Shown: positions 2-9,777 of the stretch, one piece after another
How the letters are laid out: every line of letters begins with the position of its first letter
How positions within the stretch are numbered: position 1 is the stretch's first letter
Source of the DNA: Bacteriovoracaceae bacterium
GTDB lineage: Bacteria > Bdellovibrionota > Bacteriovoracia > Bacteriovoracales > Bacteriovoracaceae
Assembly: GCA_049599895.1 (NCBI GenBank)
Contig: JBMYPC010000105.1
Span: forward strand, 1-10,934
Length of the DNA: 10,934 bases
Direction of reading: 5' to 3'
Notes under the pieces: model-generated
Told to the model about the DNA's origin: nothing
The model's database searches: none
The model's input: only the letters and a program-made list of their open reading frames with translations
Position numbers and translations under genes: made by a program

Positions 2-133
2 GTCTACCGCGGCCTCAGTGTGTCCGGTTCGGCGCAACACGCCGCCATCTTTTGCCTTGAGCGGAAAAATATGACCCGGCTTACTCAAATCATGAGACTG
101 CGTATCAGGATCGATAATGGCTTTGATTGTTTT
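2..133 (-). pseudogene. ribB: Internal fragment of 3,4-dihydroxy-2-butanone 4-phosphate synthase (RibB/RibBA); N-terminal part missing, continues off the window edge
   Basis: Not in the ORF track. Manual translation of the minus strand 133->2 gives [44 protein letters not shown], containing the RibB signatures PGHIFPL and GGVLRRxGHTEA. Similarity ends at about 135, and an in-frame TAA lies at 187-185. Confidence 0.88.
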
Positions 134-1247
134 GGTGCCATTTAATACCGTCTTCAAGTTGCTCAAATAAAACATGGACTTGTTTTAGAAAGAAAATGTT
201 TGAATCAAGGGGGAAGGCTCTAAACTTTTCTTGTCCTTTTATTTCATAATAGAGTTTTTTTCCCTGTTTGCTTAGGATGACCCTCTGTTTACTTTGAGGA
301 AGTTCGTAAGTTCCTTCAGTAAATTTTATGTGATCTAATTCTGTGTTTTCTTGGTAGAAGTAATGTTCTCCTCGACCTTTTTGAACAATTGCAGCCAAGC
401 AACGGAGAAGCCCAAAGTTAAGAGCGTATTCATTATTGGTGCAAACGAGTATTTCGAGCTCTTCTTTCATAAAGTAGAGATAGAAGCATTTAAACCCAGG
501 GTAACTTCCTGAAAGTAAACTCACTCCCTCCTCAAAAGCGCCCATATAGTTGCTTGAATCCGTTTTTCTAAAGAATGAACACCAGTTCATAATATCTTCA
601 ACGGGTGCACAGAAGCCGCCTGAAAGCAGGGCAAGGTGCGAGGTGTGCTCGACTTGGATTACTTCAAGGTCTTGATTAAGGGAATAGTGGTCCATGATAT
701 TCGTGCAATTTTCAACGGCTTCAAAACAAGATAAATCAACATATTGACCGCTAATTTCTTTCACCGCTTGAAATGAATCTTTTTTAGTGAACTTCTCCAA
801 AACCAAGCTGAGGTAAATGTAGTTGGAATTTGAATATACTGGTTGTCTTAATTTTTCTAAAGATTCGATGTGCTGTTGCAGTTCCTCTTTCGTTTGAAAC
901 CTTTTTTTTAAGTCTAAGTTCAGGGGAGCTTCTATGTAATTAGGGATGAGCGTTTGGTGATCAAGAAGCTCTTTTAAGGTATGACTTCTCCATTTTGTTT
1001 TAAAGAAGTCACCAAGAGGCTGTTGGGGATTCAGAGATTTCTTTTTAAATAGTTCTTTAAAGGTGTGATAAGCGAGTGATTTGCTGATTGAGCCCATCGG
1101 AAAATTTCCCTGCAAGAAAGAGGGGTTTAGAAGATTAAACTTGTCGTCTTTTTTTGTCGCAATGATTCCCGAGAAGAAATGATTTTGATTGAAGAATTCA
1201 TACAATTCATTGAAATTGTTTAATATAACTTTGGCGTTGTTTTTCAT
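105..1247 (-). CDS. Serine hydrolase of the beta-lactamase class C / penicillin-binding-protein-like family
   Basis: SxxK motif (FPMGSISK), LLxH motif (LKELLDHQ), YxN motif (YSNSNY), third motif region LSGSYPGF, and a C-terminal beta domain (GTYEL...LYYEIKGQ...WHQN). No obvious signal peptide. The last ~8 codons lie in ribB-derived sequence. Confidence 0.85.
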
Positions 1248-2296: not shown

Positions 2297-2614
2297 TTAA
2301 CTCTTTTTAAAATAGCTAAGAGCACTTTCTATGGCTGCCCAGAGCATAGAAATAATACCAATCGCTACAAATTTGTATACATGGTCGATGCGGACAAGTC
2401 TTTGTGTACAATTTACGAATGAAAGAAAAACTCCAGATGCTTCCTGAATCGCAAACAGAGCAAGAAGGATAAAGATATAACTCTTATAGCGTATTTTGAA
2501 TTTTGGTTTAAATGCTTTCACAAGCAGAAGATAAAACAGAAGTGAAAGAACTATTGTTATCGTATATGAAAGGGGTGACGACAAAGGGTTACTTGTCGGG
2601 TTGCAGTAGTTCAT
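2297..2614 (-). CDS. Hypothetical membrane protein, about 3 TM helices
   Basis: Three hydrophobic segments. Its ATG overlaps the upstream gene's TGA (ATGA at 2614-2611). Confidence 0.7.
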   Translation of the reverse strand: MNYCNPTSNPLSSPLSYTITIVLSLLFYLLLVKAFKPKFKIRYKSYIFILLALFAIQEASGVFLSFVNCTQRLVRIDHVYKFVAIGIISMLWAAIESALSYFKKS

Positions 2615-3465
2615 CGCAAGACCTCTCTATATTCAGTATGGGTTGTGCGATAGATTTTGTCTTTCAGTGATTTAATTGCTCTCGAAGATGAGGATCGGTT
2701 TTTTCCTGCACTGTTTGCAATACTGGAAAGATTGATTTTTCCAGAAGTGAAGCAGTTATCAGTCTCATCTTTAAGAAACAGTGACAACCATTTTTTTTGG
2801 GGTTTTGAGGCTGACTTTATTGCTTGTTGAATTACAATGCCTTCGATGTCTTCTCTTTCTTTTTGTATCAGCATCTCTTCTGGGGAGATAGCTCTGCTTG
2901 GGAGTTGGGAAAAGATGAAGAGGTTATTATTCTCTTTGTTTTTTCTATACCTTCCTTTTATTCGATCTTTTTCTTTCAATAGGAAAACAAAGGTGGCTTC
3001 TTTTCCAACCCGAGAATATTGTTCTAAAACGTCTTCTCTGATAGCTTCAATGAGTTTAAGGATGAGCTTTGCGGTAAGGTCTCTCTTTTCAAGGTCGGGT
3101 AGTATGAACCTTTTGTTGCTGGTCATCTGCTCAATTCTCTTACTCCAGTACTGACAATATTGAACCAGTATATCTTCACAATTAGCGGCCCTATCTCTGA
3201 ACTTTTCATCTTCATATTCTCGCTTTAGATCTTCTTTTTTGTGATGCTCTCTAAATCGAAGTAGTTCTTGAAAAAATTGTGAGTTTAAAAACAGGTGAAA
3301 ATCACCTCTTTTGCTTTCATGGTTTTTAAGGCACCAGTTGTATCTTGATATTAGACTCTCTCTGAGCTGGTCCAAGGAGGCCCTGCCTAGTCCTTTGCAT
3401 TTTTCAACTATGAAGCTGTTGATAAACTTGTCTCTAATTTTATATTTCGATTTTTGGCACACCAT
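2611..3465 (-). CDS. Divergent sigma-70-family (SigH/ECF-like) factor with an N-terminal extension
   Basis: Region-2-like AANCEDILVQY...LEKRDLTAKLILKLIEAIRE, linker SPEEMLIQKE, region-4-like ASKPQKKWLSLFL...NLSSIANSAGKNRSSSSRAIKSLKDKI. AGGAG RBS upstream. Confidence 0.62.
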   Translation of the reverse strand: MVCQKSKYKIRDKFINSFIVEKCKGLGRASLDQLRESLISRYNWCLKNHESKRGDFHLFLNSQFFQELLRFREHHKKEDLKREYEDEKFRDRAANCEDILVQYCQYWSKRIEQMTSNKRFILPDLEKRDLTAKLILKLIEAIREDVLEQYSRVGKEATFVFLLKEKDRIKGRYRKNKENNNLFIFSQLPSRAISPEEMLIQKEREDIEGIVIQQAIKSASKPQKKWLSLFLKDETDNCFTSGKINLSSIANSAGKNRSSSSRAIKSLKDKIYRTTHTEYREVLR

Positions 3466-3490: not shown

Positions 3491-3557
3491 CTAATTTTCT
3501 AAAATTTGTTGCATTTTATTTTAAAAAAAGATGTGCGTCGTGTTGCTTGTTGGATTG

Positions 3558-3575
3558 CATTGTATAAATACAATG
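3558..3575. promoter_or_regulatory. Palindromic operator 1
   Basis: CATTGTAT-AA-ATACAATG, perfect 8-bp arms. Confidence 0.72.
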
Positions 3576-3593
3576 TAAAATATGTACTAATAG

Positions 3594-3622
3594 TTGTAAT
3601 TTTTTTAAATATATATTACATT
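3594..3622 (+). promoter_or_regulatory. Putative sigma-70 promoter of the RHH-kinase-STAS-PIN operon
   Basis: TTGTAA (3594-3599), 17-bp spacer, TACATT (3617-3622). The region is AT-rich, so chance matches are possible. Confidence 0.45.
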
Positions 3623-3636
3623 GTATCTATGCAATG
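3619..3636. promoter_or_regulatory. Palindromic operator 2
   Basis: CATTGTAT-CT-ATGCAATG, 7/8 arm match and the same motif as operator 1, 61 bp downstream. Confidence 0.7.
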
Positions 3637-3656
3637 CATACGTGGACGATTCATAA

Positions 3657-3845
3657 GTGAAAATTAAAAGATATGAGATAGTTAAAGAGTTAAAAGAGGA
3701 GGATCTTAAAGATAAAAAGATCAACGTCACCTACAGGCTTAATAAGATGTTAGTGGATGAGTTTAAAGAAAAGTGCAAGCAAGACAATGTTGGTGCAGGA
3801 AGAGTTTTAGAGAAGATGATTGCAATTTACCTGGAGGAGAAATGA
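3657..3845 (+). CDS. Ribbon-helix-helix (CopG/ParG-like) DNA-binding protein
   Basis: 62 aa. Alternating beta strand KINVTYRL followed by two helices (KMLVDEFKEKCKQD; AGRVLEKMIAIYL). Its stop overlaps the next start (ATGA). Confidence 0.78.
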   Translation: MKIKRYEIVKELKEEDLKDKKINVTYRLNKMLVDEFKEKCKQDNVGAGRVLEKMIAIYLEEK

Positions 3846-4720
3846 CAGTAAATTTTTCTTTCGTAAACTCGGTTAGGAATGATTTTTATGGCTTCGGAGA
3901 GCTTGCGAGTCTTCAGCAGCAAGCATCAAACCTAATGTTTGATGACTTATATTTAGATTTTTCATCTTGCTCGTGGTTTGAAGCTAATTTAAGTGCTCCC
4001 CTTGGGGCTATCTTGAACAAGGCTACAAGGGATGTTGTGACAATACATTTCAACTCACTTCCTCCTGGAGTGGAAACAATTTTGCGGAAAAATGAATTTT
4101 TAACTTATTATGGGTACGGGCCTTGCATAGATACTTATGGAACTTGTGTAAAGTATTCGATGTTTAATCCAAATGACTCGATAGGCTTCAAAGATTATAT
4201 AGAGAAAGAGTTGTTTGCAAAGCACTCGCTCCCCAACATGTCAGATGGTCTAACAAAAAAAATCAAAGAAACTATAATTGAGGTGTTCACAAATACCGGG
4301 GCGCATGGTGGAACTGATCGAGTATTTTGCTGTGGTCAAATTTTTCCACAAAGCGGAAGACTTGACTTTACAATCGCAAATCTTGGTCGAACTTTTAACG
4401 ACAACATTTCTAACTACCTTGGACAAAGTCTATCAGACGTAGATGCTATTGATTGGGGTACTCAAAAGGATAACTCCACAAGGGTTGGGGCAATTCCTGG
4501 GGGACTTGGCCTGTATACTTTACTTTCATTTTTGAGTTTGAATAATGGAAAAGTTCAAATTATATCTGGGGACGGTTGCTGGACTTCTTCTGCATCGGGT
4601 GTAACGAAGAATAGAATGGCATCGAAGTTTCAGGGATCAATAGTTAACATCGAATTTAATATTAATGATCGAACTAACTATGTTTTATCAACAGAGCTTG
4701 AACAAAAAGATATTTTTTAA
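3842..4720 (+). CDS. STAS-like N-terminal domain plus GHKL/HATPase_c domain; anti-sigma-factor-type Ser/Thr kinase candidate (292 aa)
   Basis: Start reassigned to ATG 3842 (GGAGGAG RBS, ATGA coupling). N-terminal LDFSSCSWFEANLSAPLGAIL is STAS-like. N-box EVFTNTGAHG, G1 region IANLGRT, G2 box GGLGL, terminal GSIVNIEF. No TM segment or recognisable H-box. Confidence 0.85.
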   Translation: MTVNFSFVNSVRNDFYGFGELASLQQQASNLMFDDLYLDFSSCSWFEANLSAPLGAILNKATRDVVTIHFNSLPPGVETILRKNEFLTYYGYGPCIDTYGTCVKYSMFNPNDSIGFKDYIEKELFAKHSLPNMSDGLTKKIKETIIEVFTNTGAHGGTDRVFCCGQIFPQSGRLDFTIANLGRTFNDNISNYLGQSLSDVDAIDWGTQKDNSTRVGAIPGGLGLYTLLSFLSLNNGKVQIISGDGCWTSSASGVTKNRMASKFQGSIVNIEFNINDRTNYVLSTELEQKDIF

Positions 4721-4735
4721 TATAGAGGACAGTAT

Positions 4736-5083
4736 ATGACAGCAAAAGAAGTGACAATAATGGTAAAAGACGTAATCGGGGGAGATTCAGCTCTTTCTAC
4801 GGATGCTGGTATTGTTCTTTTCGATACTATGGTCAAGGCATTTAAAAATAATGCAAAAGTCAGCTTGAGTTTTAAAAACATTAAACTCATGACCTCCGCA
4901 TTTTTAAATGCAGCTATAGGGCAGCTGTACAGTAAGTACACTAGTGAGTACTTAAATCAAAAATTGATAATCAAAGATATTCAGACCTCTGACCTTGATA
5001 CCTTGAAGCTCGTCATAGAAAGAGCGAAGGACTATTTCAAAGACGAAGAAAAGGTTTCAAAGATAATAGATGAGGAAATATAA
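4736..5083 (+). CDS. STAS-like domain protein (DUF4325-type)
   Basis: AGAGGA RBS. VSLSFKNIKLMTSAFLNAAIGQLY matches the DUF4325/STAS pattern, and T53/S54 align with the phospho-acceptor motif of anti-anti-sigma STAS proteins. Confidence 0.85.
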   Translation: MTAKEVTIMVKDVIGGDSALSTDAGIVLFDTMVKAFKNNAKVSLSFKNIKLMTSAFLNAAIGQLYSKYTSEYLNQKLIIKDIQTSDLDTLKLVIERAKDYFKDEEKVSKIIDEEI

Positions 5084-5086
5084 AAG

Positions 5087-5641
5087 ATGATTCAAGATAT
5101 TCAGTCTTATACACCCACTTCAAGCGATAAGTTTTTGATAGATACCAATGTCCTCTTGTTTCTTTATTGCCCTCTAGGTAATTATCAGCAATTTATTATT
5201 CAAAAATATAGTTCATTTTTTAACGATATGGTTAACGCAGGATCAACTCTTTATATTTCTTCACAAATCTTGTCTGAATTTATAAATGTGTACCTCCGCT
5301 TAGACTTTAAAATTTTTCAAAACCAATCAGGAAATAGCGGAGCTATTTACAAGAGAGATTATAGGTCATCAGCAAGGTTTGGTCCTACCGTCGCAGCTCT
5401 TGTAAACACTTTAAACAATCAAGTGTTCAATGTTGTTCAGAAGCTTGATGATAATTTTGCAAACATTTCCGCTTCAAATATTCTTAGCAATATAGATAAA
5501 ATTGATCATAATGATGCTTATTATGCTGAGCTTGTCGCAGGAACAGGTATAAAAGTACTAACGGATGACAAGGACTATGAAATTTATAAAACAACCCACG
5601 AGATCTTTACGGGCAATCCAAGGTTAATTTCAGCTCGTTGA
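5087..5641 (+). CDS. PIN-domain (VapC-like) nuclease
   Basis: FLIDTNVLL, ILSEFIN, DHNDAYY and LTDDKDY supply the four acidic PIN catalytic positions. Starts 3 bp after the STAS stop. Confidence 0.9.
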   Translation: MIQDIQSYTPTSSDKFLIDTNVLLFLYCPLGNYQQFIIQKYSSFFNDMVNAGSTLYISSQILSEFINVYLRLDFKIFQNQSGNSGAIYKRDYRSSARFGPTVAALVNTLNNQVFNVVQKLDDNFANISASNILSNIDKIDHNDAYYAELVAGTGIKVLTDDKDYEIYKTTHEIFTGNPRLISAR

Positions 5642-5653
5642 TAGGAAAAGCAA

Positions 5654-5911
5654 ATGAAAGAGTTTTGGCTTGATTTAGAGCAACAGTTGAGATTAAAGCA
5701 GTTGAGAGAGTCTCTGTCAGAGATACATGACAAACACATAGAATTTATTAAAAAGCAGAAAGATGGAACCCTCAGAAAAGAAGATATGGAGGAGTGGAGG
5801 CAGCAAAATATTGAGCATCAAAAACTAAATAAAGAAATAAAAGAAATTTTAAATACTAATCCACTTCTTCCCGAAAATATTGCAAAAGTTTTTAAAGATT
5901 GGAAGCCTTAA
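5654..5911 (+). CDS. Small charged helical/coiled-coil hypothetical protein
   Basis: AGGA RBS, 12 bp after the PIN stop. E/K/Q/L-rich 85 aa. Confidence 0.7.
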   Translation: MKEFWLDLEQQLRLKQLRESLSEIHDKHIEFIKKQKDGTLRKEDMEEWRQQNIEHQKLNKEIKEILNTNPLLPENIAKVFKDWKP

Positions 5912-5970: not shown

Positions 5971-5989
5971 AGCAATATCGGATATTGCT
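5971..5989. promoter_or_regulatory. Palindromic operator upstream of the XRE gene
   Basis: AGCAATATC-G-GATATTGCT: perfect 9-bp arms with a 1-bp spacer, 33 bp before the ATG. Confidence 0.65.
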
Positions 5990-6022
5990 TTAGTCATTCA
6001 TGTTTCAGTCGATAACAAATAC

Positions 6023-6316
6023 ATGAGTGATATTTTTGCACAAAAACTTAAAACCGCCCTTGAGGGTCATAATCTAACTAAGTTGGCCAATGAACTGGAT
6101 ATTCCATCCAGTGTTCTTCATGATTGGTGCAAAGGCTCTCGTAAGCCATCTATGAAAAATCTAAAACTAGTTAAAAAATTAGCTGACCATGTTGGCTTTA
6201 ACTTTGAGGAGCTAGTTCTTGGTGACTCTTATAAAGAAGAAAAGACATTAACAACAGTTACTTTCAGTGATGGTGGCAATAGATATTCTGTTTCTATAAC
6301 AAAACTTAAAGATTAA
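6023..6316 (+). CDS. XRE/Cro-family HTH transcriptional regulator
   Basis: NLTKLANELDIPSSVLHDWCKGSRKPS...KKLADHVGFNFEELVLG. Confidence 0.85.
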   Translation: MSDIFAQKLKTALEGHNLTKLANELDIPSSVLHDWCKGSRKPSMKNLKLVKKLADHVGFNFEELVLGDSYKEEKTLTTVTFSDGGNRYSVSITKLKD

Positions 6317-6327
6317 ATGGGGGAATT

Positions 6328-6930
6328 ATGAGAAACATTATGCGATGGCTAGTATTAATCATTTTGACTTCTTGTAATTCAAGTGAGGGAGAAGGACTGC
6401 CTGAGATTAGTTATATCGGGCGATCTTTTGAAGATGCGACCTCTAAGTTTGGTCAGTTCTTTAATGGCAATAGCTGTTCAGCAAAGCTGATTGCTAGCTA
6501 TGAAAAAAAATATGGACCAAATATAAAATGCTTTCTAACGAAGCATAAAAAAATCAATGGCCAATTAATGATTCAAATAACGACAAGTAACGAGACTATT
6601 GTTGAAAGCCGTTTTACTTGGGTTGATACAACAGCAAGGAGATCCAACATTCAAATCTTTCCGAGGCTCTCAGATTACTTTGACTCTGAGCCACTCTACG
6701 TAAGAAAGCTTGATGATACTTACGGAAGGCTTAGCGCTTATATGGCAATCTGGGATAACAGTTCTGGAAGAGCTTATGTGACGGCGATTTGTCCTTTGAT
6801 ACCAAAGGGCGAGAGGGAAGTGACAGAGGTTTCAAAGCTTAGAAACTGTTATCTTCAACGAATGGCATTTCATAAGAAAATTAATGAAGAGATATCAAAA
6901 AAGCATCGGAAAAAAGACAAATCATTCTAA
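6328..6930 (+). CDS. Hypothetical lipoprotein
   Basis: Basic N-terminus, hydrophobic stretch and lipobox LTSC. GGGGGA RBS. Confidence 0.72.
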   Translation: MRNIMRWLVLIILTSCNSSEGEGLPEISYIGRSFEDATSKFGQFFNGNSCSAKLIASYEKKYGPNIKCFLTKHKKINGQLMIQITTSNETIVESRFTWVDTTARRSNIQIFPRLSDYFDSEPLYVRKLDDTYGRLSAYMAIWDNSSGRAYVTAICPLIPKGEREVTEVSKLRNCYLQRMAFHKKINEEISKKHRKKDKSF

Positions 6931-6939
6931 GGGGGAGCG

Positions 6940-7479
6940 ATGAGCTTTATTAAAGGTCTTTATTATTTCAACTTTGGAACAACAGGAGCCTCATTTTTTT
7001 CATGGACCACAATCATTGCTGGTGGTGCTTTTGGGTTTTACACAAAAAGCTGGGGATGGAGAATTATTTGGAGCGGTTTGAATATTCTGATAGCACTTGG
7101 CATGTATGCTTCTCATGGAAGGCCAATGGAGGCCTTGATTGGCTCAATTAGTACTCTTATTTTCTTTCAGCTTCCATTTTGGACTTCTGTATACCTTCAA
7201 GAGGCTGAAGAAGACGAGAGGATCGAAAAGCTAAAGAACCGTATCTCAGGCATGAGTGAGATTGGAGTTGTTCAATATATTGAAAATTATTTTAATTGTT
7301 TGATTGCAACTAATAGCGGTTGGCTAATTCAAAATTGGCATAATCTTTCAGATGATCAAAAGTGTAATTGGGTTAAGTCACATCGAAAACAAATCAATGA
7401 AAAACTTTATATGGCCCAAAATGCACTTGAATTGATTCAGTTAATGCAACAGTGGTCACGGTTTAAAAAAGCAAGTTGA
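6940..7479 (+). CDS. Hypothetical membrane protein (about 3 N-terminal TM helices, soluble C-terminus)
   Basis: GGGGGAG RBS, 9 bp after the previous stop. Hydrophobic N-terminal half. Confidence 0.75.
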   Translation: MSFIKGLYYFNFGTTGASFFSWTTIIAGGAFGFYTKSWGWRIIWSGLNILIALGMYASHGRPMEALIGSISTLIFFQLPFWTSVYLQEAEEDERIEKLKNRISGMSEIGVVQYIENYFNCLIATNSGWLIQNWHNLSDDQKCNWVKSHRKQINEKLYMAQNALELIQLMQQWSRFKKAS

Positions 7480-7734
7480 AATTGCTCGAAATTCATCGAT
7501 TTACTTAAATGTAACCATTGATGCTCGATTGATTTTTAAGTCGTTTAAATCGACGGTTTTGGGCGTATCCCGATGTGTTGAAACCACGATTAATACAAGT
7601 GTTTTGAATGTTTTTAGGTGGCGTTGCGACAATTGATTGAAAATAACTGCTGAAACGACGCCTCGTGTCTTAATGAGATTTTAGACATATAATTTCAACA
7701 CAAATGAAACGAACGACTTAACAAAAGGAGAGTT

Positions 7735-7950
7735 ATGACTGCAAAAAGACAAGTCTTAAATTCTTTGGTTGGTGAGCGCGTAAGCGTCTTATGCCTAGAC
7801 AGAGAAGAAACTGAGATTGTTGGTGAGCTGCTAGAAATTGATGAATATGGGGTTACTCTAAAATACAGTAGCCATTCGCGGGAGTTCATTGATTGGATTC
7901 CTGTTCAGAATCTCAGCATGCTTAGTTACAAAGTTTTAGACGTTAAGTAG
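7735..7950 (+). CDS. Small Sm/LSm/Hfq-like fold protein (putative)
   Basis: AAAGGAG RBS. Pattern LNSLVGERVSV...IVGELLEIDEYGVTL...WIPVQNLSML resembles the Sm1 and Sm2 motifs. Confidence 0.6.
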   Translation: MTAKRQVLNSLVGERVSVLCLDREETEIVGELLEIDEYGVTLKYSSHSREFIDWIPVQNLSMLSYKVLDVK

Positions 7951-7977
7951 TTAAACTTTTAGGTGGCGCCACCTTCT

Positions 7978-8562
7978 ATGAAAAGCAATCGTGTTGCTCT
8001 CTATCTGAGAGTAAGTACAACCCATCAAAATACAGAACTCCAAGAGAGAGACCTAAAGCAGTTCTGTGAATATAAAAATCTCAATATAACCCATATCTAT
8101 AAAGAGACCTGTTCTGGCTCAAAGCAATCACGACCAGAGCTAAAAAAACTAATGAATGATGCCCGTAAAAGAAAGTTTGATATTGTTCTTTGCTGGAAAT
8201 TTGACCGCTACAGTAGAAGTACAAAGCACCTTGTTGAATCCCTGGAGGAGTTTGATGAGCTTGGTATTGCCTTTATTTCATATCAAGAGAACTTGGATAC
8301 AAGCTCTAGCATGGGCAGGGCCATGTTCAGTATTATCTCTGCCATTGCTCAATTAGAACGGGATTTAATCCGTGAAAGAGTGATAAGCGGGTTAAATAAT
8401 GCTCGTGAAAAAGGGCGGAAGTTAGGTAGACTGAAAAAGCGTTCGGATCAAAAAATACGTCTGCTAAGATCAAAAGGCCTGAGCTACAGGGCAATAGCAA
8501 AAGAGCTTTCGATTAGTGTAAGTTCAGTTCAGGCAGCCTTAAAGGGACTGTCTAAGAGCTAA
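7978..8562 (+). CDS. Serine recombinase, resolvase/invertase type
   Basis: ALYLRVST (catalytic Ser), SGSKQSRPEL, DRYSRS, AQLERDLIRER and C-terminal HTH GLSYRAIAKELSISVSSV. ATG 7978 preferred; GTG 7963 possible. Confidence 0.95.
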   Translation: MKSNRVALYLRVSTTHQNTELQERDLKQFCEYKNLNITHIYKETCSGSKQSRPELKKLMNDARKRKFDIVLCWKFDRYSRSTKHLVESLEEFDELGIAFISYQENLDTSSSMGRAMFSIISAIAQLERDLIRERVISGLNNAREKGRKLGRLKKRSDQKIRLLRSKGLSYRAIAKELSISVSSVQAALKGLSKS

Positions 8563-8832
8563 TTTATAAGCTAGTTTAAGCCTGTCTATAAAATTAAGCT
8601 TTGGCTTTACCATCTTCCTTGTTAGCACCAAAAAATCACTCCCAATAATCCGATGGACCTTTAAAAAGTGAATATTATTACTGTTATCAGTTACTTTCAC
8701 AGTATGATTTCTTTCAATTCTTTTCCCATTATCACCTTTGAAAAATGGAGAATCTATTGATGCGATTGCAATTTCTATTTTAGACGGAAGAAAAGCTGTC
8801 TCACCAAGCTTGAGATTGTTGATTTCGTTCAT
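8539..8832 (-). CDS. Hypothetical protein
   Basis: AAAGGA RBS before the ATG. Its 3' end overlaps the convergent recombinase by 24 bp. Confidence 0.6.
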   Translation of the reverse strand: MNEINNLKLGETAFLPSKIEIAIASIDSPFFKGDNGKRIERNHTVKVTDNSNNIHFLKVHRIIGSDFLVLTRKMVKPKLNFIDRLKLAYKLALRQSL

Positions 8833-8940: not shown

Positions 8941-9777
8941 ATGAAGAATAAAAAAACAAGAATACTTATTTTGATGTCACTCTATTTCGCAAACATTGTT
9001 CTGTTTGCGTTCTTTTACAGTAAAATTCCAAATGGTTTCTATCATAGCTATGTTGCTCATGATCAAACATATAAAGAAAAACTGAAGGAGTTTATTAGTT
9101 CGAATGTGATTTGTGAGTTCATCGCCCAAGAAGTGATCGACAAAGTTAAGCTAGAAAACGATGGGGAAGATTGCTTGATTATTTTTGAGGATGAATTGAG
9201 GAAAGAGTATCCTATTCTAAAAAATTATAGACGAATTCGAATAGGTAACCCATTTTTTCGCAAAGGAAAATTAAGCTTTCCTGCTACCGTGGATACTGAC
9301 ATGAAAGTAAAGGGGCAATTGTTGAATTTTGTCAGTTACGATGGCCTTGTCTTAACAAACTATATAAATGAATTTATACAGTTTTCGACTGTAAACTCAG
9401 TACCAGCTTTTGCCATTTTTAACCTGAAAGAATATGCTGAAGCTCAACTTAACGAACAGGAATCATATCAAGCCTATGTAAGTCCATATAAAAACGCCAA
9501 GCTTTTTAACTTGCTAAGAAGTTTGATTAATTATTGGCAAAGAGGAACTGTTGAAAACGAAGTTCTTTTTGAGAGAATGTTGTATTTTAGTTTTGTAACA
9601 GCTTCCAGTATCGGTTATGGAGACATTGTCCCTGTTTCGACTGTTGCAAGATGGCTAATCGTTTTAGAATCCATCATTAGTTTTATCCTTGTCGGTCTTT
9701 TAGTTCATGCAATAACTTCCCAAGGGATAAAGCTAAATGTGCTCAAGGAAAATGACGAGCGTACTAAAAACCCATAA
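8941..9777 (+). CDS. Potassium-channel-family (two-TM pore, Ion_trans_2-like) protein
   Basis: LYFSFVTASSIGYGDIVPVSTVARWLIVLESIISFILVG (pore helix, GYG filter, inner helix). N-terminal TM LYFANIVLFAFFY. Confidence 0.88.
   Translation: MKNKKTRILILMSLYFANIVLFAFFYSKIPNGFYHSYVAHDQTYKEKLKEFISSNVICEFIAQEVIDKVKLENDGEDCLIIFEDELRKEYPILKNYRRIRIGNPFFRKGKLSFPATVDTDMKVKGQLLNFVSYDGLVLTNYINEFIQFSTVNSVPAFAIFNLKEYAEAQLNEQESYQAYVSPYKNAKLFNLLRSLINYWQRGTVENEVLFERMLYFSFVTASSIGYGDIVPVSTVARWLIVLESIISFILVGLLVHAITSQGIKLNVLKENDERTKNP

Follow-up and report, generated by a model that had tools for sequence, protein, structure and literature searches.

A probable VapKSC operon preceded by a ribbon-helix-helix gene in a Bacteriovoracaceae bacterium

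The window (the whole stretch of 10,934 nucleotides that was analysed) carries three closely packed genes, vapK, vapS and vapC, preceded by a small gene and an inverted repeat (Table 1). The open reading frames bear out the co-oriented unit described by the first-pass annotation, with gaps of 15 bp between vapK and vapS and of 3 bp between vapS and vapC. Nevertheless, a fourth coupled gene had been overlooked: it encodes a putative ribbon-helix-helix (RHH) protein and its stop codon overlaps the start of vapK in an ATGA. Although the listed reading frame of vapK begins at a GTG (3773), a GGAGGAG ribosome-binding site goes with the ATG at 3842, which also agrees with the start of the closest homologues (282-296 aa). 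A promoter scan returned 12 sites against 9.7 +/- 2.5 in shuffled sequences, so that no promoter could be called, and the Rfam search of the window gave no match. The 85-aa ORF at 5654-5911 has no relative among the fetched loci and was left out of the system. A comparison with known defence systems, proposed at first pass, was made with PADLOC 2023, and the 14 window proteins scanned gave no convincing hit to a defence gene. No model of PADLOC 2023 or NCBIfam picks up vapK, vapS or vapC, and standard annotation therefore misses them.

Table 1. Features of the locus, with positions counted within the window
Feature	Position	Strand	Description
Candidate operator, 28-nt inverted repeat	3556..3638	no strand	arms 3556-3583 and 3611-3638, 89% complementary
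RHH (CopG/Arc/ParG-like) protein gene	3657..3845	+	62 aa; predicted operon repressor
vapK	3842..4720	+	292 aa; STAS (1-92) and SpoIIAB-type GHKL kinase (99-277)
vapS	4736..5083	+	115 aa; stand-alone STAS (DUF4325), predicted antitoxin
vapC	5087..5641	+	184 aa; PIN RNase toxin (predicted)

VapK is identified only by its fold and its family profile, plus one unnamed PHROG match; it gave no match in Pfam, NCBIfam, PADLOC or a single-sequence PDB search. Its AlphaFold model (pLDDT 90.9, pTM 0.90, from a 30-sequence alignment) opens directly with the STAS domain and has no N-terminal HTH. In this model, the first domain resembles STAS/anti-anti-sigma folds (Z about 10-11), among them RsbV (Z 11.3, rmsd 1.9, 89 aligned residues), and the best fold match of the second is SpoIIAB (Z 12.9, rmsd 2.8, 135 aligned). 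The DHp/H-box hairpin is absent and the highest 19-residue hydropathy, 1.54, lies within the Gly-rich lid. Neither the H-box/DHp nor the sensor/TM region of two-component sensors was thus found, in agreement with the earlier description of a STAS and GHKL protein devoid of both TM segment and H-box. The recognizable motifs are W45, the N-box (E147/N151/H155), a G1 box N180-x-G182 with Asn for Asp, and the G2 box G220-G223. E147, N151 and H155 are present in 118/118 homologues, and the W45 column is W/F in 113/118. VapK departs from the consensus at 5/50 highly conserved columns, which 10/118 homologues equal or exceed.

VapS belongs to DUF4325 (PF14213, E 8e-16) and bears at residues 52-57 the MTSAFL motif noticed at first pass in this stand-alone STAS protein. 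Its best PDB sequence match is the VapS of 9Z7O (E 6e-11; family profile E 4e-23), which covers the protein end to end. A C-terminal helix spans residues 99-115, wHTH is absent, and the tail past F101 comprises 14 residues (homologue median 17, range 12-21). Two residues, T53 and S54, had been put forward as phospho-acceptors. S54 aligns with S48 of 9Z7O VapS and its position is S/T in 113/113 homologues, whereas position 53 is non-hydroxyl in 37/113; from this conservation, S54 and not T53 is predicted to be the acceptor. VapC matches the PIN family PF01850 with an E-value slightly short of the cut-off (2e-4), and its best PDB sequence match is the VapC of 9Z7O (E 1e-7), also the sole match of the family profile at E<=0.1 (E 1.4e-15). 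Its acidic residues are intact, as had been claimed: D19, which aligns with D28 of 9Z7O VapC, E64, D143, D161 and D163 are each found in 92/92 distinct full-length homologues. VapC is off consensus at 4/18 highly conserved columns (W23L, I113V, F141H, V158L), and only 1/92 homologues equals that. The predicted STAS-PIN complex scored 0.92 in three runs vs 0.00 in three controls, a result that may echo the solved 9Z7O; the mark used for this score is reached by 116/157 solved pairs and 2/215 mismatched pairs. The runs share at least 97% of their contacts and the partner pLDDT is at least 92. The closest contacts of the predicted interface involve T53-A55, including S54, and residues 99-115 also touch the PIN protein. 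This geometry is the one described for 9Z7O, and the pass may reflect likeness to the solved complex.

The structure 9Z7O belongs to a system published as VapKSC, a three-gene operon with 289 instances (Chambers, Rani, Min, Villa, Corbett, EMBO J 2026, PMC13373217). According to that paper, VapS and VapC of Escherichia assemble as a 2:2 complex in the crystal, VapC is toxic and the toxicity is gone in D28A; VapS rescues it, S48E or a deletion of 94-116 do not, and S48E loses binding. The operon provides about 2-log protection against Bas42, the one phage concerned, and this protection is gone in D28A, S48A and VapK F54A. VapK was insoluble, and AlphaFold 3 models together with phage assays of mutants are the basis for its kinase activity and its sensing of ssDNA. 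Finally, only 36% of the published loci lie near other defence genes (PMC13373217). A search of the literature on VapKSC and on the CapK-CapS kinase antitoxin returned nothing beyond this paper and its preprint. The first-pass annotation had mentioned a CapK/CapS kinase-STAS module with a VapC-linked variant, which corresponds to PMC13373217. The precedent being real, the implied novelty of the mechanism does not hold, as it is already in print.

The kinase served as the sole query for fetching homologous loci, which came from genomes (61), metagenomes (the best 80 of 117) and viral contigs (6). Where at least 1 kb was available past the kinase, the kinase-STAS-PIN (K-S-C) order was found in 57/57 genome loci, 51/52 metagenome loci (among the best 80 of 117 fetched) and 5/5 viral loci; 4 genome, 28 metagenome and 1 viral loci were shorter and were set aside. 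The kinase of the single miss (L124) is truncated. Some PIN genes scored as present are split (L009, L060, L080, L127, L143). The sets are not independent, since several of the metagenome loci are duplicates of genome loci. The kinase and PIN profiles, searched separately, pointed to the same 3/401 genomes of the window's phylum. The clustering of the three genes is not chance, and the association that the earlier reading expected in other genomes is there. The kinase family comprises 831 clusters at 50% identity (E<=1e-30), and the closest named loci belong to one Bacteriovoracaceae and one Bdellovibrionales MAG (L008, L009; 45-47%), which points to a probable host among the Bdellovibrionota. 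A first genome scan with a single kinase gave 108 pattern matches, none of them confirmed as a relative. Five of the fetched loci come from strains of Dataset EV3 of PMC13373217 (Deinococcus gobiensis I-0, Domibacillus mangrovi SAOS 44, Roseivirga pacifica CGMCC 1.12402, R. ehrenbergii KMM 6017 and Gramella/Christiangramia oceanisediminis GC03-9), paired by strain name and not by gene id. All three window proteins match their genes, with identities of 32-36% for the kinase, 27-42% for VapS and 23-34% for VapC. The dataset includes one Bdellovibrio and no entry matching Bacteriovora-.

The surroundings of the operon resemble a mobile element. The window also encodes a serine resolvase (PF00239, E 2e-43), an XRE-type HTH protein and small unknown genes, and another contig of the same genome (C125) has a paralogous backbone (HTH 91%, resolvase 53%, 71-aa and 97-aa genes). 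Left of the HTH gene, that contig carries a DUF5131 gene and a GMT-wHTH-like gene in place of vapKSC, which suggests that this position is a variable cargo slot. Within the phylum, the system occurs in 2/400 other genomes, a distribution in keeping with mobile cargo for defence or addiction. Elsewhere, the copy of genome G395 adjoins a resolvase-like gene (read by eye), and in phage Javan172 K-S-C lies between an integrase and a regulator gene. In contigs of related strains, 20/27 coding differences are synonymous vs 21% expected for random changes, an expectation that ignores transition bias (12/15 in vapK, 4/5 in vapS, 3/6 in vapC and 1/1 in the RHH gene). These contigs are of low depth and stem from runs X3 and X4 of one study; errors may account for single differences at a depth below 5. 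The share of non-synonymous differences in vapC, 3/6, counts against an intact copy, and the off-consensus columns of VapC and VapK and the short VapS tail count against full activity.

Because the best PDB matches of two of its proteins are VapS and VapC of 9Z7O, because the genes follow the K-S-C order and because the key residues are kept, the locus is assigned to VapKSC, and it is very probably an intact member that works as published. Its gene content and order, predicted domain folds, key-residue conservation, VapS/VapC homology, co-occurrence and mostly synonymous variation are all features of this copy. VapS would bind VapC and block its RNase. VapK would likely be switched on by the single-stranded DNA that arises when DNA is damaged or a phage infects, and active VapK would phosphorylate Ser54 of VapS; the freed VapC would then cut RNA and growth would halt. 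The RHH protein encoded upstream is likely a repressor of the operon. In this scheme, the 2:2 complex, the toxicity, its neutralisation, the binding loss of S48E and the ~2-log protection would carry over from the Escherichia orthologues (PMC13373217). The kinase activity of VapK, its ssDNA trigger and the RNA target are inferred in that paper, and we infer them likewise for this copy. The first-pass annotation had proposed a STAS antitoxin and an anti-phage system in which kinase activation releases the PIN nuclease. This interpretation is supported: it is the model that has experimental backing for Escherichia vapKSC (PMC13373217), and the locus fits it at the sequence level save for the G1 Asp and the groove lysines; the searches with structures and profiles that it had recommended also placed 9Z7O VapS and VapC first, and RsbV and SpoIIAB as folds of the kinase.

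The two departures concern the kinase. At position 180, where the window has N180-L-G, the 118 homologues from the loci have Asp (103), Glu (8) or Asn (7). Asn is also found in 27/150 best family representatives, which keep the N-box Asn, a figure that leans high given an Asn-rich query. In a 145-tip FastTree phylogeny, the clade that includes the window VapK numbers 13 proteins (support 0.994), 12 of them with Asn and one (L008) with Asp; Asn recurs elsewhere in the tree, with 8 changes among D/N/E. A private loss of function and an assembly error were considered for N180 and dropped, as relatives share the Asn. A preprint on VanS describes the G1 Asp-to-Asn change as rare but isosteric, and reports it in VanS and in ThkA, the latter with an Asn-adenine hydrogen bond (10.1101/2022.12.12.520123). 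The replacement is a recurrent one and is probably tolerated. The second departure involves two lysines, K180/K181, that PMC13373217 names at the predicted ssDNA groove of VapK; the paper defines neither these nor the G1 Asp as required. Escherichia VapK was returned by no search and was compared by eye only, from the Appendix sequence, whose printed numbering is 5 below that of the main text; W45 would correspond to F54, N151 to N160 and Q170/S171 to K180/K181. K occupies position 171 in 90/118 homologues.

Several scenarios may explain these departures. One possibility is that the kinase arm is weakened or dead and that the locus acts as a plain VapS-VapC addiction module stabilising a mobile element. 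The replacement of the adenine-binding Asp by N180, the absence of lysines at Q170/S171 and the location on a resolvase element go in this direction. Yet, Asn is found in 12/13 members of the window's clade and reappears in other parts of the tree, the representatives that have it keep the N-box Asn, VanS and ThkA, the latter with its adenine contact, also have a G1 Asn (10.1101/2022.12.12.520123), and vapK differs among strains mostly at synonymous sites, with S54 kept; we therefore regard a weakened or dead kinase arm as very unlikely. Alternatively, the wiring could be the same and the Asn-G1 clade could use GTP or respond to a trigger other than ssDNA. Asn likewise replaces Asp in one histidine kinase that reportedly prefers GTP (cited in 10.1101/2022.12.12.520123), the groove lysines are not kept, and the ssDNA trigger of VapK was beyond direct test in PMC13373217. 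Nevertheless, VanS, also with Asn, binds GTP less well than ATP (10.1101/2022.12.12.520123), L008 has Asp inside the same clade, the ssDNA-stacking W45 is conserved and there is an arginine, R173, two positions away from the lost lysine, all of which makes a change of nucleotide or input very unlikely. The preferred reading is still that of a VapK working as published.

Several tests, each weak but all in agreement, point to a ribbon-helix-helix fold for the 62-aa protein encoded upstream of vapK. It has an Arc-like PHROG match (E 0.003), its family profile finds 2KEL (E 5e-4), then ParG and CopG, the top Foldseek rows are mostly RHH proteins (none at E<=0.001), and one member of the family reaches Pfam RHH_1 (E 1e-8). 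When the window protein was the only query, L008 and L069 proved to carry this gene too, likewise overlapping the kinase start in an ATGA; L157 (genome G395), which was outside the input of the profile, also has it (E 5e-17). It is absent from L009, so that it occurs in 4/5 loci of the window's clade; the G288 locus, which encodes the same proteins as L008, was counted once with it. This five-locus clade is supported by the kinase (0.998), PIN (0.96) and joint (1.0) trees; the STAS tree alone does not recover it and places L157 outside. Among the 147 fetched loci, 132 of which had at least 230 nt upstream, only 2 have the RHH family, and the idea of a general fourth VapKSC component was dropped on that count. 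This count covers the RHH family alone, and regulators of other families are possible elsewhere; an HTH gene is annotated 44 bp upstream in L006. Relatives of the RHH protein were found in 10/200 genomes of the window's family, mostly ahead of other genes (a DprA-like gene, a cytosine methylase), which suggests a general mobile-element regulator recruited here.

The inverted repeat ahead of the RHH gene reaches a score attained by 0/1000 dinucleotide shuffles. It holds four T[AG]CA[AT]TG[TC]A nonamers, a pattern chosen post hoc that occurs 24 times in the whole 3.27-Mb genome. L008 and L157 also have significant inverted repeats (0/300 and 1/300 shuffles) but of another sequence, and a common operator sequence was sought across the RHH clade and not found. 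Moreover, one X3 contig has 65 other letters in place of 3578-3641, and both observations count against a fixed operator. The repeat is thus a candidate RHH operator to which the protein may bind; it could instead serve the divergent gene at 2611-3465. Taken alone, autorepression of the operon by the RHH protein is the option towards which we lean, and one that we infer for this locus only.

Another interpretation would make the RHH protein a VapB-like antitoxin of the PIN toxin and the kinase-STAS pair a separate partner switch. RHH is a common DNA-binding fold among antitoxins (PMC4803016), and the relatives L002-L004 have kinase-STAS pairs with no PIN gene nearby. Contrary to this, the RHH family is confined to 2/147 fetched loci, STAS always lies between kinase and PIN, and a VapS-VapC complex has been solved (9Z7O) and is also predicted for the window proteins. 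The absence of a VapB-type partner beside the PIN gene, remarked at first pass, also stands: the gene directly upstream encodes the DUF4325 STAS protein, and the RHH gene lies two genes further upstream. VapB has a C-terminal toxin-binding tail; the RHH protein ends three residues past its last predicted helix, without a tail of this type. An antitoxin role of the RHH protein is thus extremely improbable, and VapS is kept as the predicted antitoxin. Little credence is also given to a four-gene VapKSC subtype of Bdellovibrionota mobile elements that would combine a dedicated RHH repressor, in charge of the transcriptional control missing from VapS, with an Asn-G1 kinase using GTP or a non-ssDNA signal.

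The system is already known, and the locus extends the range of VapKSC with another orthologue. Published VapK being insoluble, a divergent orthologue may express better. How vapKSC is transcribed is not addressed in the main text of PMC13373217, which contains no mention of 'ribbon', 'RHH', 'GTP' or 'G1 box'; for one branch, the clade with RHH gene and inverted repeat offers an answer that can be tested. Since the G1 box naturally alternates between Asp and Asn, and an Asp relative exists in the same clade, the two provide a ready pair for the study of nucleotide choice in GHKL kinases. With respect to that main text, the upstream RHH gene with its inverted repeat and the Asn G1 box are new, a modest regulatory twist.

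Compared to published VapKSC, the window has the same K-S-C order, a STAS and GHKL kinase without N-terminal HTH, a PIN toxin and a stand-alone STAS protein with the conserved Ser and a short C-terminal helix. The residues mutated in the paper have counterparts here (S54 for S48, D19 for D28, W45 for F54 and N151 for the kinase Asn). In contrast, the proteins are distant in sequence from those of Escherichia, the VapS tail is shorter, the G1 box has Asn instead of Asp, K180/K181 are not kept, and a coupled RHH gene with an inverted repeat is added upstream. The PIN.4 cluster, compared by description only, couples PIN genes to DUF4325 genes and its function is listed as unknown (Matelska et al. 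2017, PMC5499597). The omega-epsilon-zeta system of pSM19035 offers a working analogy only: its toxin-antitoxin operon opens with a gene for a distinct RHH protein, which gives the transcriptional control that the antitoxin lacks (PMC4803016), but toxin and antitoxin are unrelated and there is no kinase. Classical VapBC differs in that the window vapC has a DUF4325 STAS gene, and not a vapB gene, directly upstream. SpoIIAB-SpoIIAA and RsbW-RsbV provide the best fold matches of both VapK domains and share the phosphorylation of a STAS protein on Ser; VapKSC would free a nuclease rather than a sigma factor, and VapK carries its own STAS domain. Lastly, CapK-CapS shares the STAS and GHKL kinase with its ssDNA-stacking Trp (W68, equated with W45 via VapK F54; PMC13373217), as well as a substrate of the STAS type in which the Ser is conserved. 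Its proteins bear an N-terminal HTH on the kinase and a wHTH on the STAS protein, both absent from the window, the STAS profile matches CapS (9Z72) with an E-value of only 0.4, and the output of CapK-CapS is de-repression, whereas that of VapKSC is the release of a toxin.

Several loci of related kinases fetched for comparison have notable features in or near the kinase, STAS (DUF4325) antitoxin and PIN toxin genes, vapK, vapS and vapC. In L009, which lacks the ribbon-helix-helix (RHH) gene, vapC is broken into two ORFs of 109 and 62 aa, and an additional small DUF4325-like gene, the second in this locus, lies downstream (coordinates given for these features: 7248-7792 and 7951-8229). In phage Javan172 (L007, 3956-5748), a prophage-borne vapK-vapS-vapC adjoins the phage integrase, and its PIN gene (5218-5748) is missing from the annotation of the record.

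Kinase and STAS genes also occur as pairs. Distant pairs are found in genomes of the family to which the window belongs (L002, 1061-2283; L003, 1223-2364; L004, 1181-2298), none of them with a PIN gene beside it in the 3.4 kb that were fetched; the kinase and STAS genes of L002 point towards each other. In L057 a second, divergent pair (4003-5252) lies on the opposite strand, directly upstream of the vapKSC operon. Finally, one protein of the VapK-like family (P0036, 568 aa) carries two VapK-like units in tandem.

In the window, an intergenic inverted repeat is common to the RHH gene and a divergent 284-aa gene, for which the family search of the window proteins gave no match.

Features flanking the operon in the window
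Feature	Position	Strand	Evidence
284-aa gene, divergent from RHH	2611-3465	-	weak C-terminal HTH
Membrane protein, C-terminal potassium-channel pore domain	8941-9777		PF07885, E 2e-12
Beta-lactamase/serine-hydrolase-fold gene	within 2-1247	-	PF00144, E 2e-7
Start of ribB/ribBA-like gene (presumed)	within 2-1247	-	motif

The small resolvase element of the window has a second copy in the same genome (L170, contig C125), whose counterpart is window 5972-8832 plus 1306-1582. This copy includes an MCM-like ATPase, and its cargo is a DUF5131 gene and a GMT-wHTH-like gene. Window ORF 1260-1472 aligns with the beginning of a 349-aa gene in L170 and may be a fragment. The element also carries the potassium-channel-domain membrane protein.

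The two leftmost genes, one of which resembles ribB/ribBA in a motif, are probably host genes at the left edge of the element. The intergenic repeat at 1575-1910 contains an internal duplication, and sequences matching it occur on over 15 further contigs in this genome; it gave no match in Rfam and looks like a dispersed element, putatively of the REP/MITE type.
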